Shown here one piece after another: positions 4,495-61,939 of a stretch of 64,000 bases of DNA. The DNA comes from a virus (taxonomy: Duplodnaviria > Heunggongvirae > Uroviricota > Caudoviricetes): the IMG/VR virus record IMGVR_UViG_2513237368_000009; one strand, written 5' to 3'. A program made the translations under genes and the position numbers. Under the pieces are notes generated by a model that saw only the letters and a program-made list of their open reading frames with translations, was not told where the DNA came from and made no database searches. Position 1 is the stretch's first letter; each line of letters starts with the position of its first letter.

Positions 4495-5688
4495 ATGGCG
4501 ACAAAGACAAAAGCTAAATTGGAAACAGAATTAAAGCAAGGTTTTGCAATGTTTAGAGCTTGGGGCGAAGTCAGCATAAATGACGACACTTTCAATGGTG
4601 TTCAAACGTCAGAAAAGACTGGTTACAAGTATGTGAACGTTAATTTCCCACTTAAATTAGGTGATGGCAAGCAAGTATACCTTCAATTAATGGACGGATA
4701 TCAACCAGCTAAGCCGATTCTTAAACGATTCTCTAAGAAAGCTGACGAAGGCATGATGGATATTAAGTGGGAGTTCCGTAACAAGAAAGATATTTTGGAA
4801 AATGTTGCTCCACAAAGTTTCATTAATGTTCGTTTGGAGAAAGACGACAATGGTAAATTAATCCATAAGCAATTCTTGTCAGGTATTGATGCAGCGGAAT
4901 ACATGGAGAAATTCCTTGAAAATGGTCAAGAAGTATTTGTAAGTGGCCGAGTAGAATATTCACGTTACAATGACGAAGTTCAAAGACGATTCAACATTAA
5001 GAATATTTCATTGAACGAAGGCTATACACGTAAGGGCGAAGAAGTACCCGCACATGAACATGAATTTAATGTTGAACAAACATATTTGATTGAAAAAGAT
5101 TCAATTTCTTCCCGTTCAGCTAAGGAATTAAAAGAAGAAGGACGCACAGTTATTGATGCCTACGTGCCACAATATGTAAGTAAGGAAAATGGTCATGAAG
5201 TTAAAGATACACTTGCATTGCCACAACAGATTGTCTTTACTGCAAACGAAGATAATATTGACGTACGTTTGAAAATTTTGGATAAGCTATTCAAGATGAA
5301 AAGTCGTGACGTTGTGCGAGAACTCGTATTGAAGATTGCAGTAAATGAAGGCTACGATCAAGCTACTGGAGACATTGAATTAACACCAGAAGTGCAAGAG
5401 TTAATTGATTTAGGGTTCACTACCAAAGAAGACGTTAAGAAGGAACTTACGATTCGTGGGAATAAAATTAGTGAATTGATTTTTGATGGCATTAAGATTG
5501 TCAAAGATAAGGAAACAGATAAGGCTAAAATGGCTGTCAGAGATCGTTATGACATTAGTGTTTTGAGTGTTGCTGATGAAGACGAAGAAGAAGTAATCAA
5601 GGACACAGATGAAGACGAAGACAATCCATGGGACGATGGTTCAAAAGGTGTAATAAGTGACGATAAATTTGAGGCTATGTTCGATTAA
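4495..5688 (+). CDS. hypothetical protein with acidic C-terminal tail (possible ssDNA-binding-type protein)
   Basis: GGAGG 9 nt before ATG 4495 (MATKTKAK); C-terminal EDEEEV..DEDEDNPWDDG acidic tail. Confidence 0.4.
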   Translation: MATKTKAKLETELKQGFAMFRAWGEVSINDDTFNGVQTSEKTGYKYVNVNFPLKLGDGKQVYLQLMDGYQPAKPILKRFSKKADEGMMDIKWEFRNKKDILENVAPQSFINVRLEKDDNGKLIHKQFLSGIDAAEYMEKFLENGQEVFVSGRVEYSRYNDEVQRRFNIKNISLNEGYTRKGEEVPAHEHEFNVEQTYLIEKDSISSRSAKELKEEGRTVIDAYVPQYVSKENGHEVKDTLALPQQIVFTANEDNIDVRLKILDKLFKMKSRDVVRELVLKIAVNEGYDQATGDIELTPEVQELIDLGFTTKEDVKKELTIRGNKISELIFDGIKIVKDKETDKAKMAVRDRYDISVLSVADEDEEEVIKDTDEDEDNPWDDGSKGVISDDKFEAMFD

Positions 5689-5706
5689 TAGTAGTAATAT
5701 TGACAT
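5686..5706 (+). promoter_or_regulatory. conserved 21-bp phage motif TAATAGTAGTAATATTGACAT (copy 1), abuts SD of next gene
   Basis: exact consensus; followed by TTTAAGGAGAG and ATG 5725. Confidence 0.6.
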
Positions 5707-5724
5707 TTTAAGGAGAGTGGAAGA

Positions 5725-6702
5725 ATGCAAGGAAGAAAACCCAATAGTCGTAAAAAAGGTATTAAAATTTTAGTTTATGGTGATACTGGAACAGGGAAAA
5801 CCCTGTTTGGTTTATCATTCCCAAAGATTAAGGCAATTGATTCAGAAGATGGTTATAGCTGGTACGAAGACGATCCAGTGGACGGCAGAAACTTATTAGA
5901 GATTTACGATACTCAAAGTTTCTACGATTTGAAAGATGTTCTTGAAGATCTTATGGAAGATGAAGAGGTTGGTACATTTATCATTGATTCTGAAACAAAG
6001 ATTCATGAAGACATCCAACAAGCATTACTCGATATTGATGAGAAACGTGCAAGACAAAAGGGTAAGAATACTCTTGACGCAAACTTATCAATCAGATCTT
6101 ATGGGAAGATTAAGCAACTTGAAACACGTTTACAAAATGCAAAAATTGCCTTGGCATCTCGTGGTATCAATGTTATTTCTGTAGCACAAATGAAAGATGT
6201 TATGGAAGACGTTTCTGAAACAAAACGTATCAAGGTTGGTGAAGTACCAGATATGAAGAAGAAAGCAACCTATGATTATGACGTAGTTATCAAGTTGTTT
6301 AAAGACGATGAAGATAAATACTTTGGAAAGATTGAAAAAGATCGTACAAAGACAACAACTCTTGGTCAGGTCATCGAGAACCCTAGCTATGAAATTTGGC
6401 AAGAAAGACTCGAAGGCAAGAAAAATCAGGGAGACGTTGTTAAGAAAGATTTCGTTGGTAACAATGATGAGTCTAAACGTAAGTATGAGAACGAACTTGA
6501 AAGTGAAGAGGAAGCAGCCTTACCACCAGCCGATCAGATTAAGAAGTTTGTTATTTCAATTAAGGATAAAGAAGATTTAAAGAAAGAATTTGTCACGGAA
6601 GTAGCGAAGATATCTAAGAAGACATTGAGCAAAATGAGTGACGAAGAACTGGCTGAAGTCTTGAAATTAATCAAAAATTTTAAGGAAGATAAGGGGTTGT
6701 AA
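5725..6702 (+). CDS. P-loop ATPase (RecA/AAA-like, possible recombination/replication ATPase)
   Basis: Walker A VYGDTGTGKT near N-terminus; acidic repeats. Confidence 0.45.
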   Translation: MQGRKPNSRKKGIKILVYGDTGTGKTLFGLSFPKIKAIDSEDGYSWYEDDPVDGRNLLEIYDTQSFYDLKDVLEDLMEDEEVGTFIIDSETKIHEDIQQALLDIDEKRARQKGKNTLDANLSIRSYGKIKQLETRLQNAKIALASRGINVISVAQMKDVMEDVSETKRIKVGEVPDMKKKATYDYDVVIKLFKDDEDKYFGKIEKDRTKTTTLGQVIENPSYEIWQERLEGKKNQGDVVKKDFVGNNDESKRKYENELESEEEAALPPADQIKKFVISIKDKEDLKKEFVTEVAKISKKTLSKMSDEELAEVLKLIKNFKEDKGL

Positions 6703-6715
6703 TACCCCTTTTTTC
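6692..6715 (+). terminator. rho-independent terminator AGGGGT-tgtaat-ACCCCT + T6
   Basis: seen directly. Confidence 0.6.
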
Positions 6716-6765
6716 GATATCATCAATATAACACAGGTGTTGCGCAATTCTAAGGGAGCGAAGAA

Positions 6766-8007
6766 ATGCGTAGTTATATAAACAGAAAAGGTAATAAAGT
6801 TGTAGTAAGTGATAAGCATCTTGATGTTGCTATCAGAATAAAAGAGGAACTTCAAAAGACATCTCCGACAAGACGTACATCTTGGGCTGCACATAAACGT
6901 ATGATGCGGAAAGAGGGTTTCTATGACAGTGATACAAACGAAGGATATCGCTGTCTGATTAAAGCTGTACAGAGAAAACGTGGGACTCTACCCACCGCAG
7001 TAAAGCACGTAGATTTAGTTGCGGATAATAAGTTAAAGAGTATCAAGGAAGAAGTCGGAGAGTTGTACTCTTCAAAACTACAACTACAAGCACAAGGAAG
7101 AAATATCAGAAAACTTGTCAGAGCGGTCAATAAGGACGTTCTGTTCTTAGAGGAAATTAAGGAAGCGATTAAAGAGAAAGACTTTGTTAAGCCTAGCTCT
7201 TTCAATAAGTATCGTGCCAATTCCAAAGAAGAAAAAAGGGAAATGATTGTTTGTTTATCAGATTTTCATTATGGCGCTTTAGTAGATATCCCAGAGAACA
7301 AGTACAACACTGAAATTGCCAGAGAGTTATTAAATGAATATGCTCAAAAAGTTATAAAGAATATCAAAAAGGAAAATGTTAAATCTGTCTATGTTATGAA
7401 CTTAGGTGACTTGATTGAAAACGTATATATGAGAAACCAAAATCTATACAATGCAGAGGAAACATTATCAGAACAGATAGTTAATGCTACTGAGTTAGTC
7501 ATAGAATTTCTTGAAACAATTTCTTCTTATGTTCCAGTTAAATATTCAGCTATTGCGGGTAACCATGATAGATTGCAAGGGAATAAGAAGTCAAATCTGA
7601 GTGCAGATCATGCTATCAGAGTAAGTAATAAGATTGTCCAGACGTATGCTAAATATTCAAACAGTAGAGTTCAGTATATAGAAGCTAAGAGAGATTACGT
7701 GCATTGGATCAAGGTTGGCAAATACGTTTTCTGCTTTATTCATGGAGACTTGAATAATCTACAAAAGAAGACGTTGTTAGCCGAGTTAAGCTCAATGTAT
7801 GGAGAACATTTCGTGGCTGTTATTGGTGGTCATATCCACCACTTTACCATGCTAGAAGTTGGCATGAATGAGTATCAAGTTACTTTCGGGAGTATTAAGG
7901 GAATCGATGAGTATTCAGTAGACACTATTGGTTCAAAATCGTCACGTTCTCAGGGTGTAGTTATCGTGGGGAAGGACGAGTATGAGATCAAAAAAATAGG
8001 ATTATAG
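6766..8007 (+). CDS. SbcD/Mre11-family metallophosphoesterase nuclease
   Basis: calcineurin-like motifs LSDFHYG (DxH), GDLIEN (GD), GNHD, GGHIHH. Confidence 0.6.
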   Translation: MRSYINRKGNKVVVSDKHLDVAIRIKEELQKTSPTRRTSWAAHKRMMRKEGFYDSDTNEGYRCLIKAVQRKRGTLPTAVKHVDLVADNKLKSIKEEVGELYSSKLQLQAQGRNIRKLVRAVNKDVLFLEEIKEAIKEKDFVKPSSFNKYRANSKEEKREMIVCLSDFHYGALVDIPENKYNTEIARELLNEYAQKVIKNIKKENVKSVYVMNLGDLIENVYMRNQNLYNAEETLSEQIVNATELVIEFLETISSYVPVKYSAIAGNHDRLQGNKKSNLSADHAIRVSNKIVQTYAKYSNSRVQYIEAKRDYVHWIKVGKYVFCFIHGDLNNLQKKTLLAELSSMYGEHFVAVIGGHIHHFTMLEVGMNEYQVTFGSIKGIDEYSVDTIGSKSSRSQGVVIVGKDEYEIKKIGL

Positions 8008-10504: not shown

Positions 10505-10525
10505 TAATAGTAGTAAATTCGACAT
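10505..10525 (+). promoter_or_regulatory. conserved phage motif copy (TAATAGTAGTAAATTCGACAT), abuts SD
   Basis: 19/21 to consensus; followed directly by TAGGAGG and ATG 10538. Confidence 0.55.
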
Positions 10526-10537: not shown

Positions 10538-11050
10538 ATGAATTTAAGGTATGGAATTATTTTAGATAATTTTAAGAAAGAAACAGGTATTCAAGATGCA
10601 CGTTGGGTATTAGGTTGGGAAGGGTTTTATATTATTACACTTGATGGACAAGTTTTCAAAAAGAACAAGTACAACGCTTTGTTCAAGAGGTTAGCCATTA
10701 GTGATAAGAATGACGAAAATGCAGTAGTTTCATTCAAACATCCTTTTAAGAAGAGTGGACAAACAACAAAGAAAGATCAAGTTATCTATGAGGCATTTAT
10801 TGAGAAACTAGATAAGGGTTGGAAAGTTGTTCGTGATAGTAGTAATTTTGACATAAATAGACTTAATCTTGTACATTCAAATAACTCAAAGACAATTGGT
10901 TATTACGTGGATAATGTTTGCAAGAAAACATGGAGTTCAATTAACAAGGCAGCGTTTGATTTAGGTATAGAAGAGAACATCATTAAGAATATGATAACAA
11001 AAAATGATTTCTACAAGAACTCACCGTTTGAATTAAGGATGGTGGTATAG
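10538..11050 (+). CDS. hypothetical protein
   Basis: ORF track with strong RBS. Confidence 0.45.
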   Translation: MNLRYGIILDNFKKETGIQDARWVLGWEGFYIITLDGQVFKKNKYNALFKRLAISDKNDENAVVSFKHPFKKSGQTTKKDQVIYEAFIEKLDKGWKVVRDSSNFDINRLNLVHSNNSKTIGYYVDNVCKKTWSSINKAAFDLGIEENIIKNMITKNDFYKNSPFELRMVV

Positions 11051-11051
11051 T

Positions 11052-11531
11052 TTGAAATATTTTGGCGATGACTTCTATGATGTATTGCGAGACCTTGATA
11101 GGACTGAAATGTGGGCTAATAGACTTCCTGATACAGATCCTCGAATTATATTCATTCAAGAATATGCCAAGAGACGTGAGGAAGAGGTTAGAGAATATCG
11201 TGAGAATAATTCAGATGCAAGGAAAATTATGGAATTACACTATCTCAAAGGTTGGACTATTAAAGAGCTTGCGAAAGAATATTGCAAGACAGAGTGGGCT
11301 ATTACAAACATAATTTCAAAAGCTAGAAGATTCTTTGCCTTAGATGTTAAGACTGGACAGCTCAATAGATTCAAGACTTTTGGTGAACTTGCCGATTTTC
11401 TAGATATAAGCATAAGGAATACTCGATATTATTCAAAAAATTGCGTTTTAATTAATGAACGCTGGAGAGTATTTAACCAAAGACAATGGTTGGTAGAGGG
11501 GGAAGAAATGTATGAGCATCTTAGGAAATGA
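11052..11531 (+). CDS. sigma-70 region-4-like HTH protein (candidate phage sigma/transcription factor)
   Basis: LHYLKGWTIKELAKEYCKTEWAITNIISKARRFF resembles sigma region 4 / ECF sigma HTH. Confidence 0.4.
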   Translation: MKYFGDDFYDVLRDLDRTEMWANRLPDTDPRIIFIQEYAKRREEEVREYRENNSDARKIMELHYLKGWTIKELAKEYCKTEWAITNIISKARRFFALDVKTGQLNRFKTFGELADFLDISIRNTRYYSKNCVLINERWRVFNQRQWLVEGEEMYEHLRK

Positions 11532-14078: not shown

Positions 14079-14490
14079 GATTAAGGGAGAAAAGGCACAT
14101 TTGGTCAGAGTTTATAAGGTAGGAGGAGTTAATTATGCCGATTTTGTAAAACTGTCAAATGGAGAACAGATCAGAGGTGTTAAGGTTGTTCGTGAGAAGA
14201 CTAAGAACGAAAAACCAGTAGAAAAAGAGCAAGCCAAGGTTGAAGAAGTAGTTCAAGAAGCCGTGGAAGAAGTTAAACCTAAAGAAGATGGATATGCTGA
14301 AGAAGAAGTTAAAGAGCCTAGTCAACAAATAGTAGTAACTAGCAAAGACTCACAAGCCACATTCAATTATCCGAGTGCAGAGTTCGATAAATTTGTAGAA
14401 GAGAATAAATTGAACCCTGTCATGGTTGATAATTGTATCGAGGGTAAGCAGAAGACACACAAGGGTTATGAATTTAAACTCAAAGATTAA
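14065..14490 (+). CDS. hypothetical protein (Lys/Glu-rich)
   Basis: ORF track. Confidence 0.4.
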   Translation: MRVFKIKGEKAHLVRVYKVGGVNYADFVKLSNGEQIRGVKVVREKTKNEKPVEKEQAKVEEVVQEAVEEVKPKEDGYAEEEVKEPSQQIVVTSKDSQATFNYPSAEFDKFVEENKLNPVMVDNCIEGKQKTHKGYEFKLKD

Positions 14491-14508
14491 TAATACACAT
14501 ATTGACAT
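14491..14508 (+). promoter_or_regulatory. degenerate copy of conserved motif (TAATACACATATTGACAT) with TTGACA-17-TATACT
   Basis: sigma70-like -35/-10 spacing seen. Confidence 0.5.
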
Positions 14509-14726
14509 TTTGGTCTAGTATTGATATACTATCATTGAGGAATTGGTTCGGGGAAATATCAATTTCGGAGAAGATAATATGGATATTAGGAAGTTAAAGA
14601 CTTGGGAGTTAATCGAGGCGTTAAACTATCTAATTAAGGTTGGTGTGCGTAAAGGTGCAACATATGAATACTACCTGAATGAATTAAATAGAAGATCAAG
14701 ATTACTCACAATTCTATATTGAAATA

Positions 14727-16902: not shown

Positions 16903-17082
16903 ATGAGTCAGAAGAGAGCTAGAAAATGGTACGATCAGTTAAAGGACACAAAGGTTCGTATGCGCAATGATGGTCATGAGATGTGGATTGAAAATAACAC
17001 TCTTGTCACTAGGAATATAGATAATGGCATTATTAGCAAGTATGATAAGTATGGATTTGTAATTGCAACAGAAATAATTTAA
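16903..17082 (+). CDS. small hypothetical protein (59 aa, not in ORF track)
   Basis: GAGGAGGAAAAG RBS then ATG 16903; stop TAA 17080. Confidence 0.4.
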   Translation: MSQKRARKWYDQLKDTKVRMRNDGHEMWIENNTLVTRNIDNGIISKYDKYGFVIATEII

Positions 17083-17100
17083 TAGTAGTAATATTGACAT
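17080..17100 (+). promoter_or_regulatory. conserved 21-bp motif, exact copy
   Basis: TAATAGTAGTAATATTGACAT then TTAGGAGG ATG. Confidence 0.6.
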
Positions 17101-17118
17101 TTAGGAGGTATAATAACA

Positions 17119-18739: not shown

Positions 18740-18958
18740 ATGGGAAAGACAAATTTATACATTTCATTGCTTAAATTGTCAATGGTTGTTTCAACTACTT
18801 TAGGAGTAGGAATATTGACATTTGTTGCGTTGACAATCTTGGGAATTACTTCAACGTATTTCCTTTTCTGGGCGTTTGTCGTAGTTGTTATTATGCTCAT
18901 TCTCGATATGTTGGCTACTGAAATAGTAATATATCTGTTTAATAAAGGAGATTCTTGA
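18740..18958 (+). CDS. small membrane protein (2 TM)
   Basis: hydrophobic segments. Confidence 0.4.
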   Translation: MGKTNLYISLLKLSMVVSTTLGVGILTFVALTILGITSTYFLFWAFVVVVIMLILDMLATEIVIYLFNKGDS

Positions 18959-21741: not shown

Positions 21742-22038
21742 ATGGTAAAACATGGTGGTACAATTACCTTTGACAAAAGAGAACGGATGATTTTATCTGT
21801 CTCAATGTCGAATAATGAGTTAGCAGAGCTGATTAGATTATCTGCCAGACTGATTATTGAAAATAATGATTCACGGTTTACTGTTATGCAAATTCTTAGT
21901 GGACTTGCTTCAAATTTAGATTTGCAACAAATTAGTTCATATTGTGAACATTGTAAGAATGGCTACCCTACTATGGACTATCAAGGGTTCAAATTCTGTC
22001 CACATTGCGGAAGTAGGCTCTATAAGAAAAATTTGTAA
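21742..22038 (+). CDS. hypothetical protein with C-terminal zinc ribbon
   Basis: CEHCKNG...CPHCGSRL. Confidence 0.4.
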   Translation: MVKHGGTITFDKRERMILSVSMSNNELAELIRLSARLIIENNDSRFTVMQILSGLASNLDLQQISSYCEHCKNGYPTMDYQGFKFCPHCGSRLYKKNL

Positions 22039-22052
22039 TATGAAAAGATTTT

Positions 22053-22072
22053 GATAGTACACATATTGACAT
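22053..22072 (+). promoter_or_regulatory. degenerate motif copy with TTGACA-17-TATACT
   Basis: GATAGTACACATATTGACAT. Confidence 0.5.
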
Positions 22073-22139
22073 ATTATTTGTGTTCCAGTATACTATTATT
22101 CATAGCGATAACGAATCAAAAATATATGGGGGAAAGAAG

Positions 22140-22836: not shown

Positions 22837-23176
22837 AAGCAAAGATGAATTATTTTGTGGACATACTCTTAGGGAATCATATTTTGAAGGCTTGATTAGA
22901 GCCAAGGAAGAGTTCGAGAAAAAATATCATAAAGAATTAAAGACTATCATGGAAGATCTGGACTTTAATCTTAAAAAAGGCAAAAAAAGTGTTACGTATT
23001 ATAAAAATAAGGAAGACGAGGAAATTTGTGATTTTCTTTTTGGGAACAAAGGTCTTTTCAACCTGTTTTATGGCAATGTTGCTGAGGTTACCCCTATACC
23101 TGAAATAAATAGAGTTTATATCAGGTATGTTCCAAGAAAAAGTGTAGAGGCAGAGGTTAGAAATAACCTTAATTAA
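22829..23176 (+). CDS. hypothetical protein
   Basis: ORF track. Confidence 0.4.
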   Translation: MNESKDELFCGHTLRESYFEGLIRAKEEFEKKYHKELKTIMEDLDFNLKKGKKSVTYYKNKEDEEICDFLFGNKGLFNLFYGNVAEVTPIPEINRVYIRYVPRKSVEAEVRNNLN

Positions 23177-23194
23177 AAGTAGTAATATTACAAT
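23177..23194 (+). promoter_or_regulatory. degenerate motif copy (AAGTAGTAATATTACAAT)
   Basis: partial consensus. Confidence 0.35.
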
Positions 23195-23351
23195 TTTGTG
23201 GAGGTGAATGGTCATAGTAAAGAATCAGAACGCCCCACCTAATCAATGACTTTTCAAATATGGATCAAGAAAGTCATGTCATCAGAAAATTGGGTGTGAC
23301 TGGATAAGCAAATTAAAATAGCTAATAAAAATTAAGGGAGATATTTATTTA

Positions 23352-24176
23352 ATGGAAAATTTAACAGGACGTTTTGAAGGAAATTATTTCGGATGGATTA
23401 AGGAACAATTGGTATCTGTACCAAAATCAATGTGGACAATGTGGGGATTTGGAGCTGGAATGGAAACCATCCTTTTTCTAACTGGACAAATTCAATTTAT
23501 AACATTTATGGCATTATTAGGGACATTATTCGGTATGGCATGTGTATGTAGTATGGCTTCTGGACACCCAATTAACGGAATGCTGGGTGCTGTGAGTGTA
23601 ATAGCATATATTACTGTAAATTTACCAGCACATCATTACTTTAGCGTTTTAGACCAGTTGTTCTTCCTATTCTTAATTGATATTCCCCTAATGCTGAAAT
23701 GGCGCACATGGGGTCGTGGAGATAATTCAGAAATTAAAAATCTAATTGATGTTGATAGTCTTAAAAACACATTTTCAACAGGAGAATCAAAATTTGGTAA
23801 AAAGATTCTATCTATTATCAAAAATATTTTTAAGGCATTCTGGAAATATTTACTAGTTATTATTGCAGTATTAGCGTTGTGGTTTGCATTATATCACATT
23901 GGACATTTACGAATTATGAATGATTACAATGTATATTGGGATTCTTTGGCACTCGCAATTGGAGCAGTTGCTTCTGTATTATGCTTTACACGTTATACTC
24001 AAACATATACTTTATGGTTAGTGTCTGACGCTGTTAATATAGCTCTTTGGTTTTACGCTTTGAAAGACGGTTACTCACAAGCAGCATTGCCAATGTTGGC
24101 TATGACATTATTCTATACAGCTTCAGCGGTATATGGTAGATTCTTTGCAATATGGAATGGTAAAAAGCAAAAATAA
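23352..24176 (+). CDS. polytopic membrane protein, PnuC-like nicotinamide riboside transporter (tentative)
   Basis: about 7 TM helices, W-rich loops (LMLKWRTWGRG), size 274 aa. Confidence 0.35.
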   Translation: MENLTGRFEGNYFGWIKEQLVSVPKSMWTMWGFGAGMETILFLTGQIQFITFMALLGTLFGMACVCSMASGHPINGMLGAVSVIAYITVNLPAHHYFSVLDQLFFLFLIDIPLMLKWRTWGRGDNSEIKNLIDVDSLKNTFSTGESKFGKKILSIIKNIFKAFWKYLLVIIAVLALWFALYHIGHLRIMNDYNVYWDSLALAIGAVASVLCFTRYTQTYTLWLVSDAVNIALWFYALKDGYSQAALPMLAMTLFYTASAVYGRFFAIWNGKKQK

Positions 24177-24242: not shown

Positions 24243-24273
24243 ACCATTGGTCTGAACAGCCAATGGTTTTTTT
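24243..24273 (+). terminator. rho-independent terminator CCATTGG..CCAATGG + T7
   Basis: seen directly. Confidence 0.6.
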
Positions 24274-24285: not shown

Positions 24286-24306
24286 TAATAGTAGTAAATT
24301 TGACAT
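24286..24306 (+). promoter_or_regulatory. conserved motif copy with TTGACA-17-TATACT
   Basis: TAATAGTAGTAAATTTGACAT. Confidence 0.55.
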
Positions 24307-24357: not shown

Positions 24358-24900
24358 ATGAAAAGGTTTATTGTATTCATTACAATAACATTGTTAATCG
24401 GTGTTTCATTTATTGGAATAAAGCAGCACATCATTAGTGATAGTAGTAATATTACAATTGTCAAGAAAAAGTACAGAAATATCACGAAAGTGTCTAGCAA
24501 CAATAAAGCGAGATACGAAGAGATCGAAAGAGAAGAGAGTATTAAAAATGCTCATGATGAGTCAATTTTAAGATATGCTCATGAAGTCGAAAATTTAGAC
24601 ATGAATACTCTAAACCGAAGATTTCATTCCTCTTGGAGCAATGACGATATGGGACTGGTTGGTTACATGATGAATCGAATAGGATATAGAAACTTCAACT
24701 TGTCTTCATTCATCAAAGGTGGTCAACTAATCTTTTACAGCCAATCAGACGTTGGTGATATTTATGTTTATGGAAGCCAAGAGAATCCACAATATTTAGC
24801 AATGAAAATGGATGGAGACAATGTACTAATGTTAGTCTCTGGAAAAATTAAGATAGTGGACAGTAATGTAGTTCCGAACGAAGTAATCAAATTAAATTAA
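24358..24900 (+). CDS. hypothetical protein with N-terminal TM/signal anchor
   Basis: ORF track; AGGAGGG RBS. Confidence 0.45.
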   Translation: MKRFIVFITITLLIGVSFIGIKQHIISDSSNITIVKKKYRNITKVSSNNKARYEEIEREESIKNAHDESILRYAHEVENLDMNTLNRRFHSSWSNDDMGLVGYMMNRIGYRNFNLSSFIKGGQLIFYSQSDVGDIYVYGSQENPQYLAMKMDGDNVLMLVSGKIKIVDSNVVPNEVIKLN

Positions 24901-29141: not shown

Positions 29142-29149
29142 ATATGAAC

Positions 29150-29169
29150 AATAGTAGTAATATTGACAT
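29150..29169 (+). promoter_or_regulatory. conserved motif copy with TTGACA-17-TATTGT
   Basis: AATAGTAGTAATATTGACAT. Confidence 0.55.
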
Positions 29170-30421: not shown

Positions 30422-30623
30422 TTATTTACAATTCTTGAACGGAGTAGGTACTGGCATAATTTCAGTATTTTTTGTCTTTGTCATTATGACTTATAGTAAA
30501 GGGACACACCTCTCAATTGGAAATTACGATCTCGTAGACCACCCATATATTAGGTTAGCTATTACAATATTGCTATTGGTGATAATTCTGTTAAACGTAT
30601 TTACAAATTTATTTCAGAAATAA
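30393..30623 (+). CDS. small membrane protein
   Basis: two hydrophobic helices. Confidence 0.35.
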   Translation: MIWTKAERGDYLQFLNGVGTGIISVFFVFVIMTYSKGTHLSIGNYDLVDHPYIRLAITILLLVIILLNVFTNLFQK

Positions 30624-30641
30624 TAGTAGTAATATTGACAT
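30621..30641 (+). promoter_or_regulatory. conserved motif, exact copy, with TTGACA-17-TATAAT reading into noncoding region/tRNAs
   Basis: perfect sigma70-like geometry seen. Confidence 0.6.
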
Positions 30642-35380: not shown

Positions 35381-35400
35381 ATGTTAATATTACTACTTTC
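35381..35400 (-). promoter_or_regulatory. conserved motif copy on minus strand (GAAAGTAGTAATATTAACAT)
   Basis: reverse complement read. Confidence 0.45.
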
Positions 35401-39246: not shown

Positions 39247-39975
39247 CTATCTATCTATTAATTCAGCTTGACGTTCAACCCAATTGTAGAACTGCCTATC
39301 ATGCTCTTTGATTGATGACATTATATGATTATTATTGTTTACTTGTATAATCAAATCGTAATAATCTTCATCGTCAATGCGGATTACGTCTGGCATAAAA
39401 TTAGCATTTTTCTTTTTCCTGTTGTACACGACCCAAACCATAGCAAGAGATTTGGTATAATCAAAAATATCATCGTGAAAATAGGGCTTATCGGACAATT
39501 TGTCATAATCCTTGATTTGTTTAATTGCCTTCAGCATTTCGTTTCTAGAAAACGTTTCTTCATTTGTGGGTAGATTAAAACGACTACCGAAATAGTCATC
39601 AAATTGATAATCGGGTACATCTTCCCAAGTCATAAAACGCTTGTGGTATATGATATTAACGATTTGAGACACTAATTCTAATATAAGCAAGGTAAAAACA
39701 ATTATACCCATGATGTGATACTCTATAAATACACTCCCCACAATACATAAACAGAATAAAAAAAGTAATGTAATCATTAATTTGAAAAATATTACACAAG
39801 TTCTATCCCAGATATAATTTGGTAGGCTTAATGATTTATAAATATTATTTAGTGTAATATCATTTTCTAGGCTGATTGAATTTCTACGCCTTAGAACCGC
39901 TAATAATGTATTGATTTGAATTTGTTTTTCAGAACTCTCGATAATATATTCTGTTACTTCTACCTTCTTTTCCAT
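39247..39975 (-). CDS. membrane protein
   Basis: central TM helices. Confidence 0.45.
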   Translation of the reverse strand: MEKKVEVTEYIIESSEKQIQINTLLAVLRRRNSISLENDITLNNIYKSLSLPNYIWDRTCVIFFKLMITLLFLFCLCIVGSVFIEYHIMGIIVFTLLILELVSQIVNIIYHKRFMTWEDVPDYQFDDYFGSRFNLPTNEETFSRNEMLKAIKQIKDYDKLSDKPYFHDDIFDYTKSLAMVWVVYNRKKKNANFMPDVIRIDDEDYYDLIIQVNNNNHIMSSIKEHDRQFYNWVERQAELIDR

Positions 39976-40004
39976 ATTTCTCTCCTGTTATAATGTCAAG
40001 ATTA

Positions 40005-40355
40005 CTACTTGCAGAAACCACCATTAAGCAATTGTTGTAACATACTAAAGTTAGGAGTAAACAACCCCTTAGTTGTTATGACAATTGCTATCAAGAATAC
40101 AAGGTCAAAAATCACCAATACAATCAATACTAAAATTCTAGCTATCGGATCATCTTCCCACCTTGTCTTGTTTTCATAGCATTCTTTAATGTTTCTAAAC
40201 AAAAAGTACCCAGCTATCGTGAAACCAATAAAACCTAGTACAGACAATGCAATCGTTATAAATGACTGCATCATGTATTCATGAACCAATTCATGATACC
40301 CTTGTGGTGTCTTTTTCATTAGTTCCATAGCTAATACATTTAATTTATTGTCCAA
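40005..40355 (-). CDS. membrane protein
   Basis: two TM helices. Confidence 0.4.
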   Translation of the reverse strand: MDNKLNVLAMELMKKTPQGYHELVHEYMMQSFITIALSVLGFIGFTIAGYFLFRNIKECYENKTRWEDDPIARILVLIVLVIFDLVFLIAIVITTKGLFTPNFSMLQQLLNGGFCK

Positions 40356-45535: not shown

Positions 45536-45560
45536 ATTGTAATATTACTACTATCAACAT
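45536..45560 (-). promoter_or_regulatory. conserved motif copy (minus: ATGTTGATAGTAGTAATATTACAAT)
   Basis: reverse complement read. Confidence 0.5.
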
Positions 45561-45600
45561 ATATAAATATAACCGTTAAACATCAAAATGTCAACGGTTA

Positions 45601-45624
45601 TTGTAATATTACTACTATTAAATT
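45601..45624 (-). promoter_or_regulatory. conserved motif copy (minus: AATTTAATAGTAGTAATATTACAA)
   Basis: reverse complement read; second copy 40 bp from previous. Confidence 0.5.
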
Positions 45625-49050: not shown

Positions 49051-49064
49051 GTCTTTCCTCCTAA

Positions 49065-49089
49065 ATGTCAATATTACTACTATTAAATT
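49065..49089 (-). promoter_or_regulatory. conserved motif, exact copy on minus strand, abuts SD of HAD gene
   Basis: minus: AATTTAATAGTAGTAATATTGACAT then TTAGGAGG. Confidence 0.6.
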
Positions 49090-49256
49090 GGTTCGATTGT
49101 CTTGCTATTGAGATCAGCAAAATACAAAGCGTCCCTACTATCCATAAAAGTAAATTCCTTATCTTCACCATCTGGCAGTATGTCGTGAATGTGTTTAATG
49201 TTGTTCTTCGCTGCAAGTTTCTTGACAGCTTTCAGTTCTGAATGTTTGACTTCCAT
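49083..49256 (-). CDS. small hypothetical protein (57 aa, not in track)
   Basis: RBS TTAGGGG then ATG 49256; motif copy upstream. Confidence 0.35.
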   Translation of the reverse strand: MEVKHSELKAVKKLAAKNNIKHIHDILPDGEDKEFTFMDSRDALYFADLNSKTIEPI

Positions 49257-49290
49257 TTCTAAACCCCTAACTTTATTTTATATACTATAT

Positions 49291-49315
49291 TATAATATTA
49301 CTACTATTAAAAATC
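49291..49315 (-). promoter_or_regulatory. conserved motif copy (minus: GATTTTTAATAGTAGTAATATTATA)
   Basis: reverse complement read. Confidence 0.5.
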
Positions 49316-50660: not shown

Positions 50661-51361
50661 TGTGATTTCTCCTTTTTTATGTCAAATTTATTTTCAATTC
50701 TTGTCTTAGCTACGTCAAAATACTCTTCGTTTAGCTCTATGCCAATAAATCTACGTTTTAGGTTTAAGGCTGCTATGCCTGTTGACCCACTACCCATGAA
50801 ACAGTCCAATACTATGTCATTCTCATTACTGTGTCGTAATATCAATTCTTCCATTAGTTCTACAGGCTTTTGTGTTGGATGAAACTTATTCTTACCAGAT
50901 ACAATAGGATATCTTAATTCAGAACGGTCATACTTATCTGATTGTCTATTGAAAGTCCATTTGCCCTTCTTAATAGCTACTATTGCAAATTCATAATCAA
51001 CAATATATCTTCTATCTCTATTTCTTGGCATTGGATTGGTCTTTTCCCATCTAATAAGGTCTTTTACTATCAATCCTGATTTTTCTAATTCTTTTGCGAT
51101 ATCCCCTAAATTTTTCCAATCATTAAACACGATCAACGTACCACCACGTTTAAGGGTACGAGCAGCATCACTTATCCATGTGAGAATGTCTGCATCATGA
51201 TCCCATGTACCAAAATCAATGCTACTTCTACCCATAGTGTCAAAGTTGTTATCTTTGGCAATATTATATGGAGGGTCTGTTAGAACTAAGTCAATGCTTT
51301 CATTGGGTATCTTTTTCATTGCCACAAGACAATCGCCATTTTGCAAGGCATATTTACTCAT
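50639..51361 (-). CDS. DNA methyltransferase (N6-adenine/N4-cytosine, DPPY class)
   Basis: LVLTDPPYNI and FMGSGSTGIAA (AdoMet motif I). Confidence 0.65.
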   Translation of the reverse strand: MSKYALQNGDCLVAMKKIPNESIDLVLTDPPYNIAKDNNFDTMGRSSIDFGTWDHDADILTWISDAARTLKRGGTLIVFNDWKNLGDIAKELEKSGLIVKDLIRWEKTNPMPRNRDRRYIVDYEFAIVAIKKGKWTFNRQSDKYDRSELRYPIVSGKNKFHPTQKPVELMEELILRHSNENDIVLDCFMGSGSTGIAALNLKRRFIGIELNEEYFDVAKTRIENKFDIKKEKSQCKTLSK

Positions 51362-52151
51362 GAACCAACTCCCCCTTCGCCTTTATGTCAATATTACTAC
51401 TATTGATACGCTCTTTAGCAATGTAAAAATAATCATCTTCCTTTTCAATACCCAAAAATCTACGACTAGTATTTAAACAGGCGACACCAGTTGAACCTGA
51501 ACCCATACAGTTATCTAACACTAGGTCATTTTCATTTGTATAAGTTTTTATGAGATATTCAAGTAATTCAACGGGCTTTTGGGTCGGATGCAGCCTATCC
51601 TTGTTTACAATGTTAGATACAGTAACTATACTTGTGGGATATTTCATATTGCTATCCTGAGCTTTTGTATAATTCTTGTGATCATAACTTCCGTACACTT
51701 TGCTATTGTCCATACTATTGCCTTTGTTTTCCCATTTCTTACCTCGTGAATGACTTGGCTCTCCACCTTCTGTCATTTGAGGATTATAGATTGGCAATTT
51801 TTTGTAGAACACAAGAATATCCTCATGTTTGCGCAAAGGCATTCGATTTGCATTAAGAAAACCTGTTGTCCTAACTTTGTCCCAAACCAACGTGTATCTA
51901 TACATTCTCTCATTTGATAAGATTAACTTAGCAGAGAAAGCGTTCTGACCAAACAGTACGATAGCACCATTTTCCTTAATGACTCTTTTATACTCTTTCC
52001 ATAATTCATCAAAAGGAATAATGCTATCCCATTTATTATGAGTAACCTTACCATACGGTAGATCACATAGAATCATGTCAATACTTCCATTAGGTATCTT
52101 CTGCATTACTTCAAGACAATCACCCTTTTGTAAGGCATATTTATTACTCAT
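51354..52151 (-). CDS. DNA methyltransferase (second, DPPY-like class)
   Basis: ILCDLPYGKV and CMGSGSTGVAC motifs. Confidence 0.6.
   Translation of the reverse strand: MSNKYALQKGDCLEVMQKIPNGSIDMILCDLPYGKVTHNKWDSIIPFDELWKEYKRVIKENGAIVLFGQNAFSAKLILSNERMYRYTLVWDKVRTTGFLNANRMPLRKHEDILVFYKKLPIYNPQMTEGGEPSHSRGKKWENKGNSMDNSKVYGSYDHKNYTKAQDSNMKYPTSIVTVSNIVNKDRLHPTQKPVELLEYLIKTYTNENDLVLDNCMGSGSTGVACLNTSRRFLGIEKEDDYFYIAKERINSSNIDIKAKGELVHE
51385..51408 (-). promoter_or_regulatory. conserved motif, exact copy, inside 3' end of upstream MTase gene and just upstream of downstream MTase SD
   Basis: minus: TATCAATAGTAGTAATATTGACAT then AAAGGCGAAGGGGGAG ATG. Confidence 0.55.
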
Positions 52152-57296: not shown

Positions 57297-57321
57297 ATTG
57301 CAATATTACTACTATTGAAAC
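57297..57321 (-). promoter_or_regulatory. conserved motif copy (minus: GTTTCAATAGTAGTAATATTGCAAT) with TTGCAA-16-TATGCT
   Basis: reverse complement read. Confidence 0.5.
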
Positions 57322-58564: not shown

Positions 58565-59215
58565 GTGGAAATTACATTGAATAATGGAGGCAACAAAATG
58601 ACATTTAAGGATTCAGACAAAATCTCTAAATCCAGAATTATTAATTTAAGAGAAAAGAACAATCTTACACAAAATGAACTAGCTGAAAAAGTAGGTATAA
58701 ATAGATCTGTTTTAAATCGCATAGAGAATGGCTCTCGTCATCTAAGAGATGATGAGGTAGTTAAATTAGCTAATTATTTTCATGTTTCGACTGACTATCT
58801 TCTTGGGAATGATAGAATGCGTTGCGAAAACCACATTGAAGCGATATCCAAAGATTCAGATGAAATACTTAAAACCAAAATCATTAATTTGAGAGAGAAA
58901 AATAAGCTCACACAAAATGGGCTTGCAGAAAAAGTTGGACTCGATGCTACTATAATTAGCAAGATTGAAAATGGAACAAGAAAAGTGTCTAGCTCTGAAT
59001 TAAACAGGTTTGCTAATATTTTCTCTGTGTCCGCTGATTATCTTCTTGGGAATACGTCCAATAGATATCAAGATGAAGTGGATCTAAAAGACTTTTTAGA
59101 TCAGAATTTCAATAAAGGTATGAGTTATGCAGATGAGGAACTTACTGACGAAGATAAACAAAGATTAAAAATTGCACTCACTCAGATTTTTTGGAAATAT
59201 CATAATAAAAAATGA
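58565..59215 (+). CDS. XRE-family transcriptional regulator with two tandem HTH domains
   Basis: duplicated IINLREKN(N/K)LTQNELAEKVG...IENGSR modules. Confidence 0.65.
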   Translation: MEITLNNGGNKMTFKDSDKISKSRIINLREKNNLTQNELAEKVGINRSVLNRIENGSRHLRDDEVVKLANYFHVSTDYLLGNDRMRCENHIEAISKDSDEILKTKIINLREKNKLTQNGLAEKVGLDATIISKIENGTRKVSSSELNRFANIFSVSADYLLGNTSNRYQDEVDLKDFLDQNFNKGMSYADEELTDEDKQRLKIALTQIFWKYHNKK

Positions 59216-59539: not shown

Positions 59540-59893
59540 ATATAGTTACAAGGCTGCTTTTGAGGTCTATTACCTTGTTCGCAGCATTCAACGGAACTTG
59601 CGTATTCTAATTCAAAAACATGTAGTATTTGAAATGTGACCCACATTACTGATCACCCTCGCACCCTGTAATTATAAAAGAATTAATTTATAGTCGTACT
59701 TTAATCGACTTTTATCCAGCCAATAAATGCAAGTTCTATGGATTCACTCCTAACTTGCAATGCTCAGGGAAGGATTTGCACCTACATAGCCACAATGACG
59801 ACAGATTTACAGTCTGCGGAGTTCTCTAATACTCAGCCCAAGCGTGTTATTCTTATTTATTTGTTTCCAATTTTGAATCTAAAATCTGAGTAC

Positions 59894-60184
59894 GTTTTCC
59901 TTATCTAAAGGTTTTAATCTGACTAAAACGCATGTATGCTAACCATTGCAGTTTTCCCTATCTAAGGATTCTAGTCAAACTAAAACAAGAGCTTTCAATA
60001 CACATTTCAGTCCAGTGTTTTCCTTATCTAAGGATTCTAGTCAAACTAAAACGCTTTTTCGGAATATCCTATCTTGTCTGTAGTTTTCCTTATCTAAGGA
60101 TTCTAGTCAAACTAAAACTACAGTTGGAAAATCAAGTAAGAAGTTACAGTTTTCCTTATCTAAGGATTCTAGTCAAACTAAAAC
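59894..60184 (-). CRISPR. CRISPR mini-array: 5 x 36-bp repeats (consensus on + strand GTTTTCCTTATCTAAGGATTCTAGTCAAACTAAAAC), spacers of 21, 30, 30, 30 nt
   Basis: repeats at 59894, 59951, 60017, 60083, 60149; leftmost repeat degenerate with truncated spacer, so leader inferred at right and transcription on minus strand (repeat then reads GTTTTAG..., type II-A-like). Confidence 0.85.
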
Positions 60185-60287
60185 CTCAAAATATCCTATC
60201 ATCACTTCAAGGCTTCCTAGGAACTCCGAACCATTGTCCAGATATTTACTAGGCTATTATGGATTGATGGAAACTTCCAATCCTAAT

Positions 60288-60368
60288 GGAACTGGATAGA
60301 TTTGAACTATCTGAGCTTTTAACACTTCCAGTTATTGAGTATTACTAGCATTACCCAATTCAGTTCCG
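60288..60368 (-). tRNA. tRNA-like element (81 nt) with aberrant core; possible unusual or pseudo-tRNA
   Basis: perfect 7-bp acceptor GGAACTG/CAGTTCC and canonical T-arm GATAG-TTCAAAT-CTATC; D/anticodon arms could not be folded canonically by hand. Confidence 0.35.
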
Positions 60369-60970
60369 TTTTCGGGAGAAACTCTCTTTATACTGGTTCT
60401 CCTCTTGTTCCAGTTATGCAAGTGGCATGGATTCAAACCATACAGTGACTAACTTTATAATACTGGCTTACCTCGTACATTAGGTGTAGTCAGGTGTTCT
60501 CACGGTTTTACTCACGCAACCAGTCAAACCTTAGCGTTACTCTCTGCGCCACACTTGCTAGTAATCTACCCGAAGGAAACCAACCATAAGAAGGTCTAAG
60601 TAGTAGAATGGGAACTCACATGCCCCACTTGAATGGACGATTGCCTATACCACATCGCTCACGTTCTTTCCTTTTTAGTGACCACACTAGCAGCTCGGTA
60701 TAGAACCTACTCGTTGGATTTAATCTCAAACCCGATGATTCAATGTCTATATTAGCATTGAATTATTTTTGACTAGTCATAATTCCAAAAAACCGCCTTT
60801 GTGGGTCGAACCGAATTATGTTGACGAAATGTCTAGAGTGTCAATTCTATTAACATTTCACCCTTTTTGACATATCTAGGAAAGATTTGACTGATCTTTC
60901 AGTTGTATGCTAGTGCCAATGGATTGGGTTTAATTTATTACTGCGTATTTAAAGATTACTTTAAATACTA

Positions 60971-61258: not shown

Positions 61259-61283
61259 ATGTCAATATTACTACTATTAAATT
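61259..61283 (-). promoter_or_regulatory. conserved motif, exact copy (minus: AATTTAATAGTAGTAATATTGACAT) with TTGACA-17-TATATT, reading into tRNA/CRISPR cluster
   Basis: reverse complement read; downstream (lower coordinates) are tRNA-like genes and the array. Confidence 0.55.
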
Positions 61284-61321
61284 TGTTATATTACGCAAAA
61301 TAAAGCAATATAACAAATAAT

Positions 61322-61621
61322 TTATAATCTCTTCATTCTTTCCTCAGCGACAGGTTGAAGTATATAAGGGAATCGAGGATTATCTGATGTCATCATTGCA
61401 AATCTCCCAGCCTTGCTTATTAATCCAAATTGTTCCAATAAATGAACTTTTTGGTTGTGTATTGGAAGATTTGCAGAATTAGGATGATTTCTATAGAGTT
61501 CTTTTAAAATTGTCATCGCTTCTGGATCTTGGAATAATTTTTCTTGCTGTTCGGTATAATATTTGTTAAAAGCCAAATCTCTTCTCTTTTTTGCTATTTT
61601 TTTACTTATACGAACCACCAA
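61322..61621 (-). CDS. hypothetical protein with N-terminal TM
   Basis: ORF track. Confidence 0.4.
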   Translation of the reverse strand: MVVRISKKIAKKRRDLAFNKYYTEQQEKLFQDPEAMTILKELYRNHPNSANLPIHNQKVHLLEQFGLISKAGRFAMMTSDNPRFPYILQPVAEERMKRL

Positions 61622-61907
61622 TAGAAAAAAAGAACCAAATAGAAAAATTAAGACAATATAATCGTAATTATCTAAAAAGTTTTCTAAATGAAGTTTTTTA
61701 AATAATTAGATGGTAAAAAATTTGCGGCCGATAAAAGAATACTCGTTGAGAATGTAGCAATCAAAACTTCAAAGCTAATGGGTTTTCTTAGAAAATCAAT
61801 AACTTTATCGAACATTTTATTATACTCTCTTTTCTATAGTAGGAATTAGTATGCTGTTTAATATACTATAATATAAATACTTTTTCATTATATCATATTT
61901 AATTTTA

Positions 61908-61929
61908 ATGTCAATATTACTACTATAAG
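61908..61929 (-). promoter_or_regulatory. conserved motif copy (minus: CTTATAGTAGTAATATTGACAT) with TTGACA-16-TATAAT
   Basis: reverse complement read. Confidence 0.5.
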
Positions 61930-61939
61930 AAACAAAAAA

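Follow-up and report, generated by a model that had tools for sequence, protein, structure and literature searches.

A dispersed, gene-co-oriented 21-bp box in a large Liquorilactobacillus mali phage element, a candidate operator set of an MrpR/YopR/SroF-type repressor

A long sequence that recurs before gene after gene of a large phage might be a promoter, an operator or a signal in RNA, and this question is raised by the 64,000-nucleotide stretch of IMG/VR record IMGVR_UViG_2513237368_000009, the whole of which was analysed and is called the window herein. The window appears, from sequence comparison, to be approximately half of a temperate phage or phage-plasmid of approximately 126.6 kb in Liquorilactobacillus mali DSM 20444, circular or circularly permuted. 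A sequence-only reading had described a 21-bp motif in more than 20 copies and explained it as the phage's core family of very strong host-type early promoters. Herein, we propose that a phage-encoded master repressor of the MrpR/YopR/SroF type, for which the open reading frame (ORF) at 1430-2668 is the candidate gene, uses the motif as its operator, and that the motif is often fused to an early promoter; a probability of about 0.58 is given to this reading. MrpR (YopR, SroF) is the master repressor of phage SPbeta and has a tyrosine-recombinase fold and no recombinase activity (PMC10516654), and its site, the SPbeta repeated element (SPBRE), is 15 bp long (PMC10516654, citing Lazarevic et al. 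1999).

The motif, its copies and their relation to promoters

The 21-mer TAATAGTAGTAATATTGACAT occurs 20 times in the 64-kb window with at most three mismatches, against 0.01 occurrences expected from dinucleotide-preserving shuffles, and exact matches to its 12-mer core AGTAGTAATATT number 18. From these 18 exact-core copies a weight matrix was built, which detected 24 strong copies (at least 19 bits) and 5 weak copies (14-18 bits), 29 in total. The recurrence described earlier is real, and all the positions then listed were recovered to within 1-3 nt, the degenerate copies 14488, 22052, 23174, 33495 and 58382 among them; one further listed site, 31274, was seen by eye but is very degenerate. 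However, the list was incomplete, and the copies at 3447, 4214, 10834, 24438, 39993, 18801 and 20514 were missing from it. In the information profile, positions 0-11 are invariant and are followed by three variable positions and an invariant AT. The 5' block AGTAGTAATATT carries fixed G residues and is more highly conserved than the TTGACA part. The 3' end is of two kinds: 10 of the 18 exact-core copies have ..ATATTGACAT, and the remaining 8 have ..ATATT(ACAAT/ATAAT/AACAT/GCAAT), which lacks TTGACA. As a whole, the motif is a long, non-palindromic, AT-rich and dispersed box with 21 conserved bp, and further copies are present in the flanks of the window. The copies are listed below, with ribosome-binding site abbreviated as RBS; clades A, B and C of related elements, and relative B, are described in the next section.

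3447-3467, + strand: motif copy, ..TTACAAT form, 29.2 bits, inside a deoxynucleoside monophosphate (dNMP)-kinase-like ORF; a clade C copy lies inside the same gene
4214-4234, + strand: motif copy, 31.2 bits, inside ORF 3900-4493; GATAAT 17 bp after TTGACA; kept in the L. hordei phage at L186:12769
5686-5706, + strand: exact motif copy; its TAA is the upstream stop codon; abuts the RBS of an AAA_24 gene; other motifs stand at this junction in clades B and C
10505-10525, + strand: degenerate motif copy, 17.4 bits; directly 3' of promoter TTGACT-17-TAAAAT; abuts an RBS
10834-10854, + strand: motif copy, 26.4 bits, inside a 170-aa ORF, approximately 200 nt 5' of ORF 11052; at the corresponding position within the gene, relative B carries a motif of its own (L185:11881)
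14488-14508, + strand: weak motif copy of the ACACATATTGACAT type, 10.7 bits; TATACT at 17 bp; homologous promoter in relative B
17080-17100, + strand: exact motif copy; its TAA is the upstream stop codon; abuts an RBS; arm of a 33-bp inverted repeat with 49065; end of a public contig
18801-18821, + strand: weak intragenic motif copy, 17.7 bits
20514-20534, + strand: weak intragenic motif copy, 14.4 bits
22052-22072, + strand: degenerate motif copy of the ACACATATTGACAT type, 15.8 bits; TATACT at 17 bp
23174-23194, + strand: motif copy, ..TTACAAT form, 26.5 bits; its TAA is the upstream stop codon; 157-nt leader to a PnuC-like gene
24286-24306, + strand: motif copy, 22.3 bits; after a terminator-like hairpin (24243-24267); TATACT at 17 bp
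24438-24458, + strand: motif copy, ..TTACAAT form, 28.5 bits; inside ORF 24358-24900
29149-29169, + strand: motif copy, 30.7 bits; TATTGT at 17 bp
30621-30641, + strand: exact motif copy; perfect promoter TTGACA-17-TATAAT, followed by a 640-nt non-coding stretch and two tRNA genes
31548-31568, + strand: motif copy, 21.3 bits; 5 nt after tRNA-Thr and 33 nt before the start of an SPFH gene
33495-33515, + strand: degenerate motif copy, 20.7 bits; at the end of a deoxynucleoside kinase (dNK) gene, whose stop codon is the TAG of the motif
35381-35401, - strand: motif copy, ..TTAACAT form, 27.3 bits; gene 35399-36484 has its stop codon, TGA, in the first triplet of the motif
39993-40013, - strand: motif copy, 21.0 bits; abuts the RBS of gene 39247-39975
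45536-45556, - strand: motif copy, 28.5 bits, the downstream one of a pair; after promoter TTGACA-17-TATATT; abuts an RBS
45600-45620, - strand: motif copy, the upstream one of the pair, 64 bp from 45536; a 64-bp pair is also present in relative B and at SPbeta yonX
49065-49085, - strand: exact motif copy; its TAA is the upstream stop codon; abuts an RBS; second arm of the 33-bp inverted repeat; in relative B, the gene that follows is preceded by that element's own motif
49289-49309, - strand: motif copy, 26.3 bits; in the spacer of TTGATT-17-TATAAT, a layout as that of SPBRE at SPbeta yonP and yosX
51385-51405, - strand: motif copy, 30.7 bits; in the 3' end of a methyltransferase gene, 23 nt before the next start codon
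56069-56089, - strand: motif copy, ..TTAACAT form, 24.8 bits; its TAG is the upstream stop codon; abuts an RBS
57297-57317, - strand: motif copy, ..TTGCAAT form, 29.3 bits; TATGCT at 16 bp; its TAG is the upstream stop codon
58382-58402, + strand: variant motif copy TAATAGTAGACATATTACAAT, 19.6 bits; 5' of a + strand RstR-like gene; TAGACA-16-TATCAT
61259-61279, - strand: exact motif copy; TTGACA-17-TATATT with an upstream TG; drives an island of tRNA and CRISPR-like RNA
61908-61928, - strand: motif copy, 28.8 bits; TTGACA-16-TATAAT with an upstream TG

All 29 copies have the orientation of the local genes and flip where the genes flip, as had been stated before; the isolated + strand gene 58598-59215, which lies within a - strand region, is served by the + strand copy at 58382. 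The description of the motif as strictly intergenic was wrong, since five of the 24 strong copies (3447, 4214, 10834, 24438 and 51385) and two weak ones (18801 and 20514) lie inside ORFs; the location of copy 51385 within the 3' end of the methyltransferase gene (51354-52151) was already recognised correctly. All five strong intragenic copies are translated as (N/D)-S-S-N-(I/F)-(D/T)-I. Coding DNA is depleted of strong copies (5 of 24 against approximately 21 expected, binomial P ~1e-13), and an equal occurrence of the motif in coding regions, which had been named as a result that would speak against its role, was not seen. In addition, the motif contains in-frame stops (TAA-TAG-TAG-TAA), one of which is the real stop codon of the upstream gene in 10 copies. 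Approximately 30 copies are distributed over approximately 76 kb of early, replication, accessory and lysis DNA of the element, and zero exact-core copies were found in approximately 26 kb of structural genes, where the top match reached 21.7 bits; the number of motif sites per element is approximately 40. An exact 17-mer of the motif gave only single chance matches across 185,579 species genomes, and therefore the motif is not host-wide. In IMG/VR, no record with more than one motif copy was found except a fragment of the same element.

The relation of these copies to sigma-A promoters is not uniform. In the promoter scan, a -10 box follows the TTGACA of the motif at 16-18 bp in approximately 9-10 of the 29 copies, so that the coupling of the two elements proposed earlier holds for these copies and is lacking at the others. 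The best sigma-A matches of the window are themselves motif copies (30621, 61908, 61259, 22052, 24286 and 29149), and two of the best motif promoters, 30621 and 61259, drive tRNA and other RNA genes. On the other side, in at least 10 copies the distance from the motif to a start codon is 0-35 nt, a Shine-Dalgarno sequence stands immediately 3' and a -10 box is absent; examples are 5686, 10505, 17080, 31548, 39993, 45536, 49065, 51385 and 56069, together with L051:7188 in the left flank, where GACAT is followed directly by GGAGG. The copies at 17080 and 49065 read TTGACATTTAGGAGG..ATG. Because the motif runs straight into the Shine-Dalgarno sequence and the start codon, there is no room in these copies for a -10 box and a transcription start. 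The place of the motif relative to the sigma-A elements also varies, being upstream of or overlapping the -35 box, in the spacer (49289) or 3' of the -10 box (10505 and 45536). In total, approximately 13-15 of the 29 copies overlap or adjoin a recognisable sigma-A promoter, and at the rest none is detectable. This variable position, together with the fixed G residues in the best-conserved part, suggests the behaviour of a protein-binding site rather than that of an UP element. Thus, the motif is tied to transcription start regions, as the sequence-only reading had it, but it is not one promoter family, and its 5' part, an invariant block with fixed G residues that is better conserved than the -35 part and specific to the phage lineage, does not behave as the AT-rich UP element that had been proposed.

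Several other observations concern the same sites. A second promoter family, A(A/C)ACATATTGACAT with a -10 box at 17 bp, was found at approximately 240-290, 14488-14530, 22052-22095 and L053:1113; it heads the integrase/repressor operon and is common to all three phage lineages, unlike the lineage-specific 5' block of the motif. The ORF at 11052-11531, which had been called sigma-like, contains a region-4 helix-turn-helix only (residues 53-93) and falls below the family cut-offs (Pfam 23.0 against 24.1, TIGR02937 27.5 against 42.9); region 2 was not detected, a relative was not found in the PDB, and the ORF was rejected as a sigma factor. The copies at 17080 (+) and 49065 (-) share the 33-bp inverted repeat AATTTAATAGTAGTAATATTGACATTTAGGAGG (17068-17108 and 49057-49097), and precisely there two assembled contigs terminate, the public AYYH01000006.1 and one from Logan. 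Because the repeat is at least as long as the assembler k-mer size, these ends are taken as assembly breaks, and the motif repeats would explain why public assemblies of the element break there. The 32-kb segment between the two copies could, in principle, invert. Also, a hairpin ATAACCGTTGACATTTTGATGTTTAACGGTTAT (45557-45599, - strand; folding z = -1.96 for the 146-nt region) overlaps the promoter TTGACA-17-TATATT between the paired copies and is kept in relative B (L063, approximately 21822-21860); it may be a site for another regulator.

A repressor-like gene and three clade-specific boxes

The following features lie near the left end of the window.

295-1344, + strand: YopP-like tyrosine recombinase gene (Pfam Phage_integrase E=4e-8; NCBIfam XerA-like 1.4e-11, below cut-off; blastp to SPbeta yopP 7e-13)
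1374-1402, + strand: sigma-A-like promoter TTGATT-17-TATACT before the repressor-like gene, motif-free; the promoter-like site is kept in all lineages
1430-2668, + strand: gene of an MrpR/YopR/SroF-like integrase-fold protein of 412 aa, the proposed cognate repressor (fold and weak profile matches)

The similarity of the 412-aa protein to the MrpR family was found mainly at the level of structure. By sequence, ORF 1430-2668 matches Pfam MrpR_N_CB with E=1.3e-4, which is below the family cut-off, and this profile matches weakly in three of the four family members scanned. Only five homologues were found, all in related elements, and four of them have PF22823 MrpR_C_cat on record. A profile of the repressor family, when compared with the ORFs of SPbeta, ranked yopR best (E=0.0026). 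Searches with the repressor-like and the integrase-like protein by phmmer against the PDB and by tblastn against deposited phages returned nothing, and therefore a fold search was needed. The AlphaFold2 (AF2) model of the protein (pLDDT 73.7, pTM 0.49) was compared with the PDB by Foldseek, and the top seven matches were all SroF, MrpR or YopR structures (9rd5, 8a0a, 9rgl, 8bpz, 8bj6), with E values of 2e-8 to 6e-8, a probability of 1.00 and TM scores of 0.43-0.49 normalised to the target. The best match was the SroF-DNA complex 9rd5, followed by MrpR (8a0a) and YopR (8bpz, 8bj6), and ordinary recombinases such as XerA and Cre stood behind with E values of 1e-5 to 1e-3. In an alignment of the six members inspected by eye, the position of the box-I arginine is occupied by K in five of six, and in the HxxRH-like box the histidine positions are occupied by S/K and T/N, with R347 and Y370 invariant. 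An hhalign comparison of the repressor family with the YopP-like integrases gave no usable alignment for the catalytic residues. The YopP-like gene lies directly upstream of ORF 1430-2668, an order as in the SPbeta sro operon, and the same order was observed in all five relatives. Equivalents of yopQ, yopM, yopN and yopO were not identified near the repressor-like gene.

Five related elements with similar gene order were found in IMG/VR and other public assemblies, and comparison with them revealed that the motif changes from clade to clade. The repressor-like proteins form three clades; members of clade A are 80% identical and those of clade C 70-89%, against 35-39% from clade to clade. The box of clade A (the window and L186) is TAATAGTAGTAATATTGACAT, that of clade B (L185 and L063, the stretches of relative B) is AAATAAACATAATGAAAG, and that of clade C (L189, L195 and L196) is AAGTAAACAAATAG, which is also present inside the dNMP-kinase gene. 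These clade-specific boxes stand at homologous junctions, including the intragenic sites in the 170-aa and dNMP-kinase genes. The closest relative, IMGVR_UViG_2663762946_000001, has a DnaE 82% identical to that of the window and carries AAATAAACATAATGAAAG at the same junctions, namely before the MIIAVDFDGTLC gene, as a 64-bp pair flanking the conserved hairpin and inside the 170-aa gene. Since the type A element L186 and a type B element both come from L. hordei and differ in the 5' block at the same junctions, the specificity of the box follows the phage rather than the host RNA polymerase. In a column-shuffle test, no pair of motif types was significantly similar. A 15-mer of relative B gave chance matches among those listed in IMG/VR; a query with the RecD2 helicase recovered no relative. 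In L186, L195 and L196, 8-9 coding-strand copies of a further repeat, AAAAAGAATTTTTAGGAGG, are interspersed with small genes 5' of the integrase-like gene.

Proposed mechanism, objections and alternatives

We hypothesize that, in the lysogenic or carrier state, the repressor binds as a monomer and would clamp each asymmetric box of approximately 21 bp, TAATAGTAGTAATATTnnnAT. At sites of overlap with a sigma-A promoter, the bound repressor would block initiation, and the overlap might take the form of a 3' TTGACA that serves as the -35 box, of a box that fills the spacer, or of a box that covers the start site just 3' of the -10 box. A lone box between a stop codon and an RBS, or inside a gene, would probably be a roadblock to read-through or an extra binding site, which is a guess because such copies have no recognisable sigma-A promoter nearby. 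The repressor gene itself would be expressed from its own motif-free promoter, and upon induction the removal of the repressor would turn on the early, replication, accessory and RNA genes from host-type promoters. The concentration of copies in early, accessory and lysis DNA, together with the absence of exact-core copies from the structural genes, fits a lysogeny repressor that keeps early functions shut off. We infer that the candidate repressor physically binds the boxes, represses transcription and might act as a roadblock.

Several results weigh against this proposal. The protein is linked to the motif by fold, gene order and analogy, and its sequence homology to MrpR is weak, as seen in the empty phmmer search of the PDB, an hhalign probability of 4.5% and a Pfam match below cut-off. 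The motif looks like SPBRE by eye (14 of 23 positions), but homology of the two was dropped after a column-shuffle test (p = 0.125), and the similarity is not significant beyond shared AT-richness. All other phage proteins diverge along the same three clades, so that the covariation with the box is not specific to the repressor-like protein. Approximately one-third of the copies have no recognisable sigma-A promoter nearby, approximately 40 sites per genome are present against approximately 10 in SPbeta, and strict co-orientation is not needed for a simple roadblock. Moreover, the Cheo/LexA box (GAAC-N4-GTTC) is absent from the window, a Sar-like antirepressor was not identified, an AimR-like gene was not seen among the proteins scanned, and a second repressor candidate is present, namely the RstR-like protein at 58598-59215 with two helix-turn-helix (HTH) domains.

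A more far-reaching form of the operator proposal, which we regard as possible but doubtful, is that the boxes constitute a dense genome-wide silencing grid of approximately 40 sites, including coding sites and sites fused to stop codons and RBSs, and that the whole set has been rewritten together with the repressor between sister phages of the same host. Positions are kept and sequences are replaced even inside genes, e.g. DSSNFDI against NKHNDI in the 170-aa protein. If so, the element would have an immunity switch with dispersed operators that could evolve only through dozens of coordinated changes or through gene conversion among its copies, and the monomeric, DNA-encircling repressor would be a transcriptional roadblock inside operons.

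The alternatives closest to the original proposal treat the box itself as a promoter. That all copies are strong host sigma-A early promoters, whose -35 box is TTGACA and whose AT-rich 5' block is an UP element for the alpha C-terminal domain, agrees with the identity of the window's best sigma-A matches and motif copies, with the approximately 9-10 copies that have a -10 box at 16-18 bp, and with the two copies that head RNA-gene clusters. However, a correctly spaced -10 box is lacking in approximately two-thirds of the copies, TTGACA is missing from 8 of the 18 with an exact core, the 5' block has invariant G residues and exceeds the -35 part in conservation, the position relative to promoter elements varies, and phages of the same host species differ in the 5' block; the explanation is highly improbable for the set as a whole. 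The 21-mer alone might instead be an autonomous phage-specific promoter that initiates near its 3' invariant A-T, read by the host core enzyme with a phage factor or by a phage polymerase, and it would then resemble T4 late promoters or the promoters of phiEco32 gp36. The compact size, the strict co-orientation and the placement right before the RBS in at least 10 copies would suit such a promoter, as would the -10-like TAATAT within the motif, with the invariant AT 5-6 nt downstream, and the intragenic copies 4214 and 10834, which sit 200-260 nt 5' of the next gene. The motif also differs between sister phages, and promoters of the T7 group change together with their polymerase. What argues against it is that no homologue of YonO or of any RNA polymerase gene was found in the approximately 94 kb of the element searched, that the only sigma-like ORF consists of the region-4 helix-turn-helix alone, that several copies follow a good sigma-A promoter or supply its -35 box, which fits an operator better, and that the equivalent box of SPbeta is, by experiment, a repressor site (PMC10516654). 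We consider an autonomous promoter improbable.

An operator might also belong to a different protein, the alternative candidate being the following gene.

58598-59215, + strand: RstR-like repressor, alternative motif-binding candidate (two Pfam HTH_3 domains; NCBIfam phage_RstR 108.7 bits against a cut-off of 80)

Its two domains might read the direct half-sites TAATAG and TAATAT, and TAATA is indeed present twice in the motif with starts 9 bp apart. The protein exceeds the NCBIfam RstR cut-off, is transcribed divergently in a classical immunity-like position beside the leftward early operon, and has a variant of the motif in its own upstream region. However, relative B has a gap of approximately 460 bp in place of the 3.5-kb island, with no homologue in the stretches compared, and yet these stretches contain at least 20 copies of the type B motif, whereas the MrpR-like gene is present in six of six elements with the motif family. 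In SPbeta, the master repressor identified as binding SPBRE is MrpR and not YonR, the homologue of the HTH domain of this protein (PMC10516654); a role of the RstR-like protein as the cognate binder is hardly to be expected. Finally, the motif might act in RNA, as an intercistronic processing site or as a translational operator just 5' of the Shine-Dalgarno sequence, and its co-orientation with the genes, its placement between stop codon and RBS and the stop-codon overlap in 10 copies are in keeping with this. RNA structure around the motif did not exceed that of shuffled sequence (z -0.4 to +1.1, five single copies), and the copies that supply a -35 box, those at the heads of tRNA clusters included, would not be transcribed from that promoter. 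An RNA-level role is unlikely, and very much so as an account of the whole family. The operator of an MrpR/YopR/SroF-type repressor is therefore the reading that we retain.

The element in comparison with known systems

The proteins of the window are encoded on AYYH01000006.1 (GCA_001436535.1) and AKKT01000168.1, and the AKKT project is a sequencing project of Lactobacillus mali (PMC3393694). The two ends of the window map to one contig of 94,695 bp, and the difference between their offsets is 126,647 bp, from which a circular or circularly permuted element of that size is deduced; a 126,646-bp contig with the same protein is on record. No similarity to deposited phages was found at the nucleotide level, and the DnaE-like protein is at most 40% identical to that of any deposited phage. 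The gene content includes a DnaE-type polymerase, a DnaB-like helicase, a RecD2-like helicase, a ligase, methyltransferases, a GH25-LysM endolysin, TnpB and tRNAs. Homologues of SPbeta yorL, yorI, yorJ, yonJ and yopP and a YorH domain are present, and the replication module is SPbeta-like. A pair of a HigB-like toxin and an HTH antitoxin in the left flank of the window (L051:5785-6380) fits stable carriage as a prophage or plasmid.

Other features were observed in and around the window. To its right, the structural region contains two giant ORFs of approximately 2,108 and 2,139 aa (L197:2653-8979 and L053:5597-12016). A TnpB/IS605 OrfB-type gene at 27363-28514 (+) has HTH_OrfB_IS605, OrfB_IS605 and Cas12f1-like TNB domains, and the region 23195-24176 (+) comprises a gene for a PnuC-like nicotinamide mononucleotide transporter and the 157-nt leader that starts from copy 23174, for which no riboswitch family was matched. 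Downstream of the promoter copy 61259, the RNA-gene island includes an orphan CRISPR-like mini-array (59890-60189, - strand) with a period of 66, in which 30-nt spacers separate four good copies and a fifth, degenerate one of the 36-nt repeat GTTTTAGTTTGACTAGAATCCTTAGATAAGGAAAAC; cas genes were not observed in the window. Two non-coding stretches of approximately 650-700 nt (30660-31300, + strand, and 60260-60950, - strand) lie directly 3' of the two best promoters, beside tRNA genes, and both contain tRNA-like T-arm fragments (GGTTTGAATCC). The Rfam scan found tRNAs only and assigned no family to the two stretches even at E<=1; they may be large structured RNAs or decayed tRNA genes.

If the proposed operator function is correct, the integrase-fold repressor system of MrpR/SroF with dispersed boxes extends from SPbeta-like phages of Bacillus to large elements of the Lactobacillaceae, in a version that is not findable by BLAST. 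The three natural pairs of repressor and box at homologous sites would then provide material on how a monomeric, clamp-like repressor changes specificity and how operator sets co-evolve with it. For annotation, repeated promoter-like motifs of large Firmicutes phages should be checked against this model before they are called promoters.

The most detailed comparison is with SPbeta. MrpR binds SPBRE at approximately 10 dispersed promoter regions of SPbeta in chromatin affinity precipitation sequencing (ChAP-seq), shifts it in an electrophoretic mobility shift assay and represses lacZ fusions of aimR and yosX (PMC10516654). When SPBRE was scanned in NC_001884, 11 copies were found, all co-oriented with the downstream gene. 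SPBRE lies within the spacer of TAGACA-17-TATAAT at yonP, yosX, yorZ and yorE, to be compared with copy 49289 of the window; at yopV it follows the promoter TTGACA-17-TATAGT and abuts the RBS, and at yopM it also abuts the RBS, both sites being ChAP-seq peaks, to be compared with copies 10505 and 45536. At yonX, a pair of SPBREs lies 64 bp apart around a promoter, and the pairs in the window (45600 and 45536) and in relative B are also 64 bp apart. Thus, both systems have dispersed, asymmetric, AT-rich boxes that are co-oriented with the genes and stand in the spacer or between promoter and RBS, and in both an integrase-fold repressor gene follows a YopP-like integrase gene (yopP-yopQ-yopR in SPbeta). 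Unlike SPbeta, the present element has a Liquorilactobacillus rather than a Bacillus host and its own circular 126.6-kb contig. The protein, of 412 aa, has approximately 90 extra N-terminal residues and reaches 13-19% identity when aligned by structure. Approximately 40 sites are present against approximately 10, in many cases the box is joined to a TTGACA -35 box, strong intragenic sites number five, and the arbitrium, Sar and LexA parts were not identified here.

SroF of phage phi3T is a monomer that nearly encircles an asymmetric AT-rich box of 26 bp, CAGTAATTTTATTTTTATTCTTAATG (bioRxiv 10.1101/2025.11.27.690993; PDB 9rd5), and for its family, numerous sites in distant genome regions and several specific variants of the repressor are described (bioRxiv 10.1101/2025.11.27.690993). 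The protein studied herein has SroF as its best structural match and a box that is likewise long, non-palindromic and AT-rich, and the variant-specific pairs of repressor and box in that family match the three clades observed here. The box sequence is unrelated to that of SroF, and 21 bp are conserved here against the 26 bp of the SroF box. The C1 repressor of the phage-plasmid P1 also binds an asymmetric operator, of 17 bp, as a monomer, at more than 12 sites that overlap promoters over a genome of approximately 90-100 kb. Its fold and operator sequence are unrelated to those described here, and, to our knowledge, P1 operators have not been reported at intercistronic junctions of stop codon and RBS or inside genes. 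The strong early promoters of T5 and SPO1 and the T4-type PeSL early-promoter cassettes are repeated, highly conserved, promoter-containing sequences before many early genes; they are complete -35/-10 promoters read by the host holoenzyme, and as repeats they can mislead assemblers and may promote recombination. Unlike these, most copies of the present box have no -10 box, and their conserved block is lineage-specific. Taken together, a system of this type is already known from MrpR/SroF and SPBRE, and what is new in the element of L. mali is the host family, the larger number of sites and the presence of intragenic and intercistronic sites.

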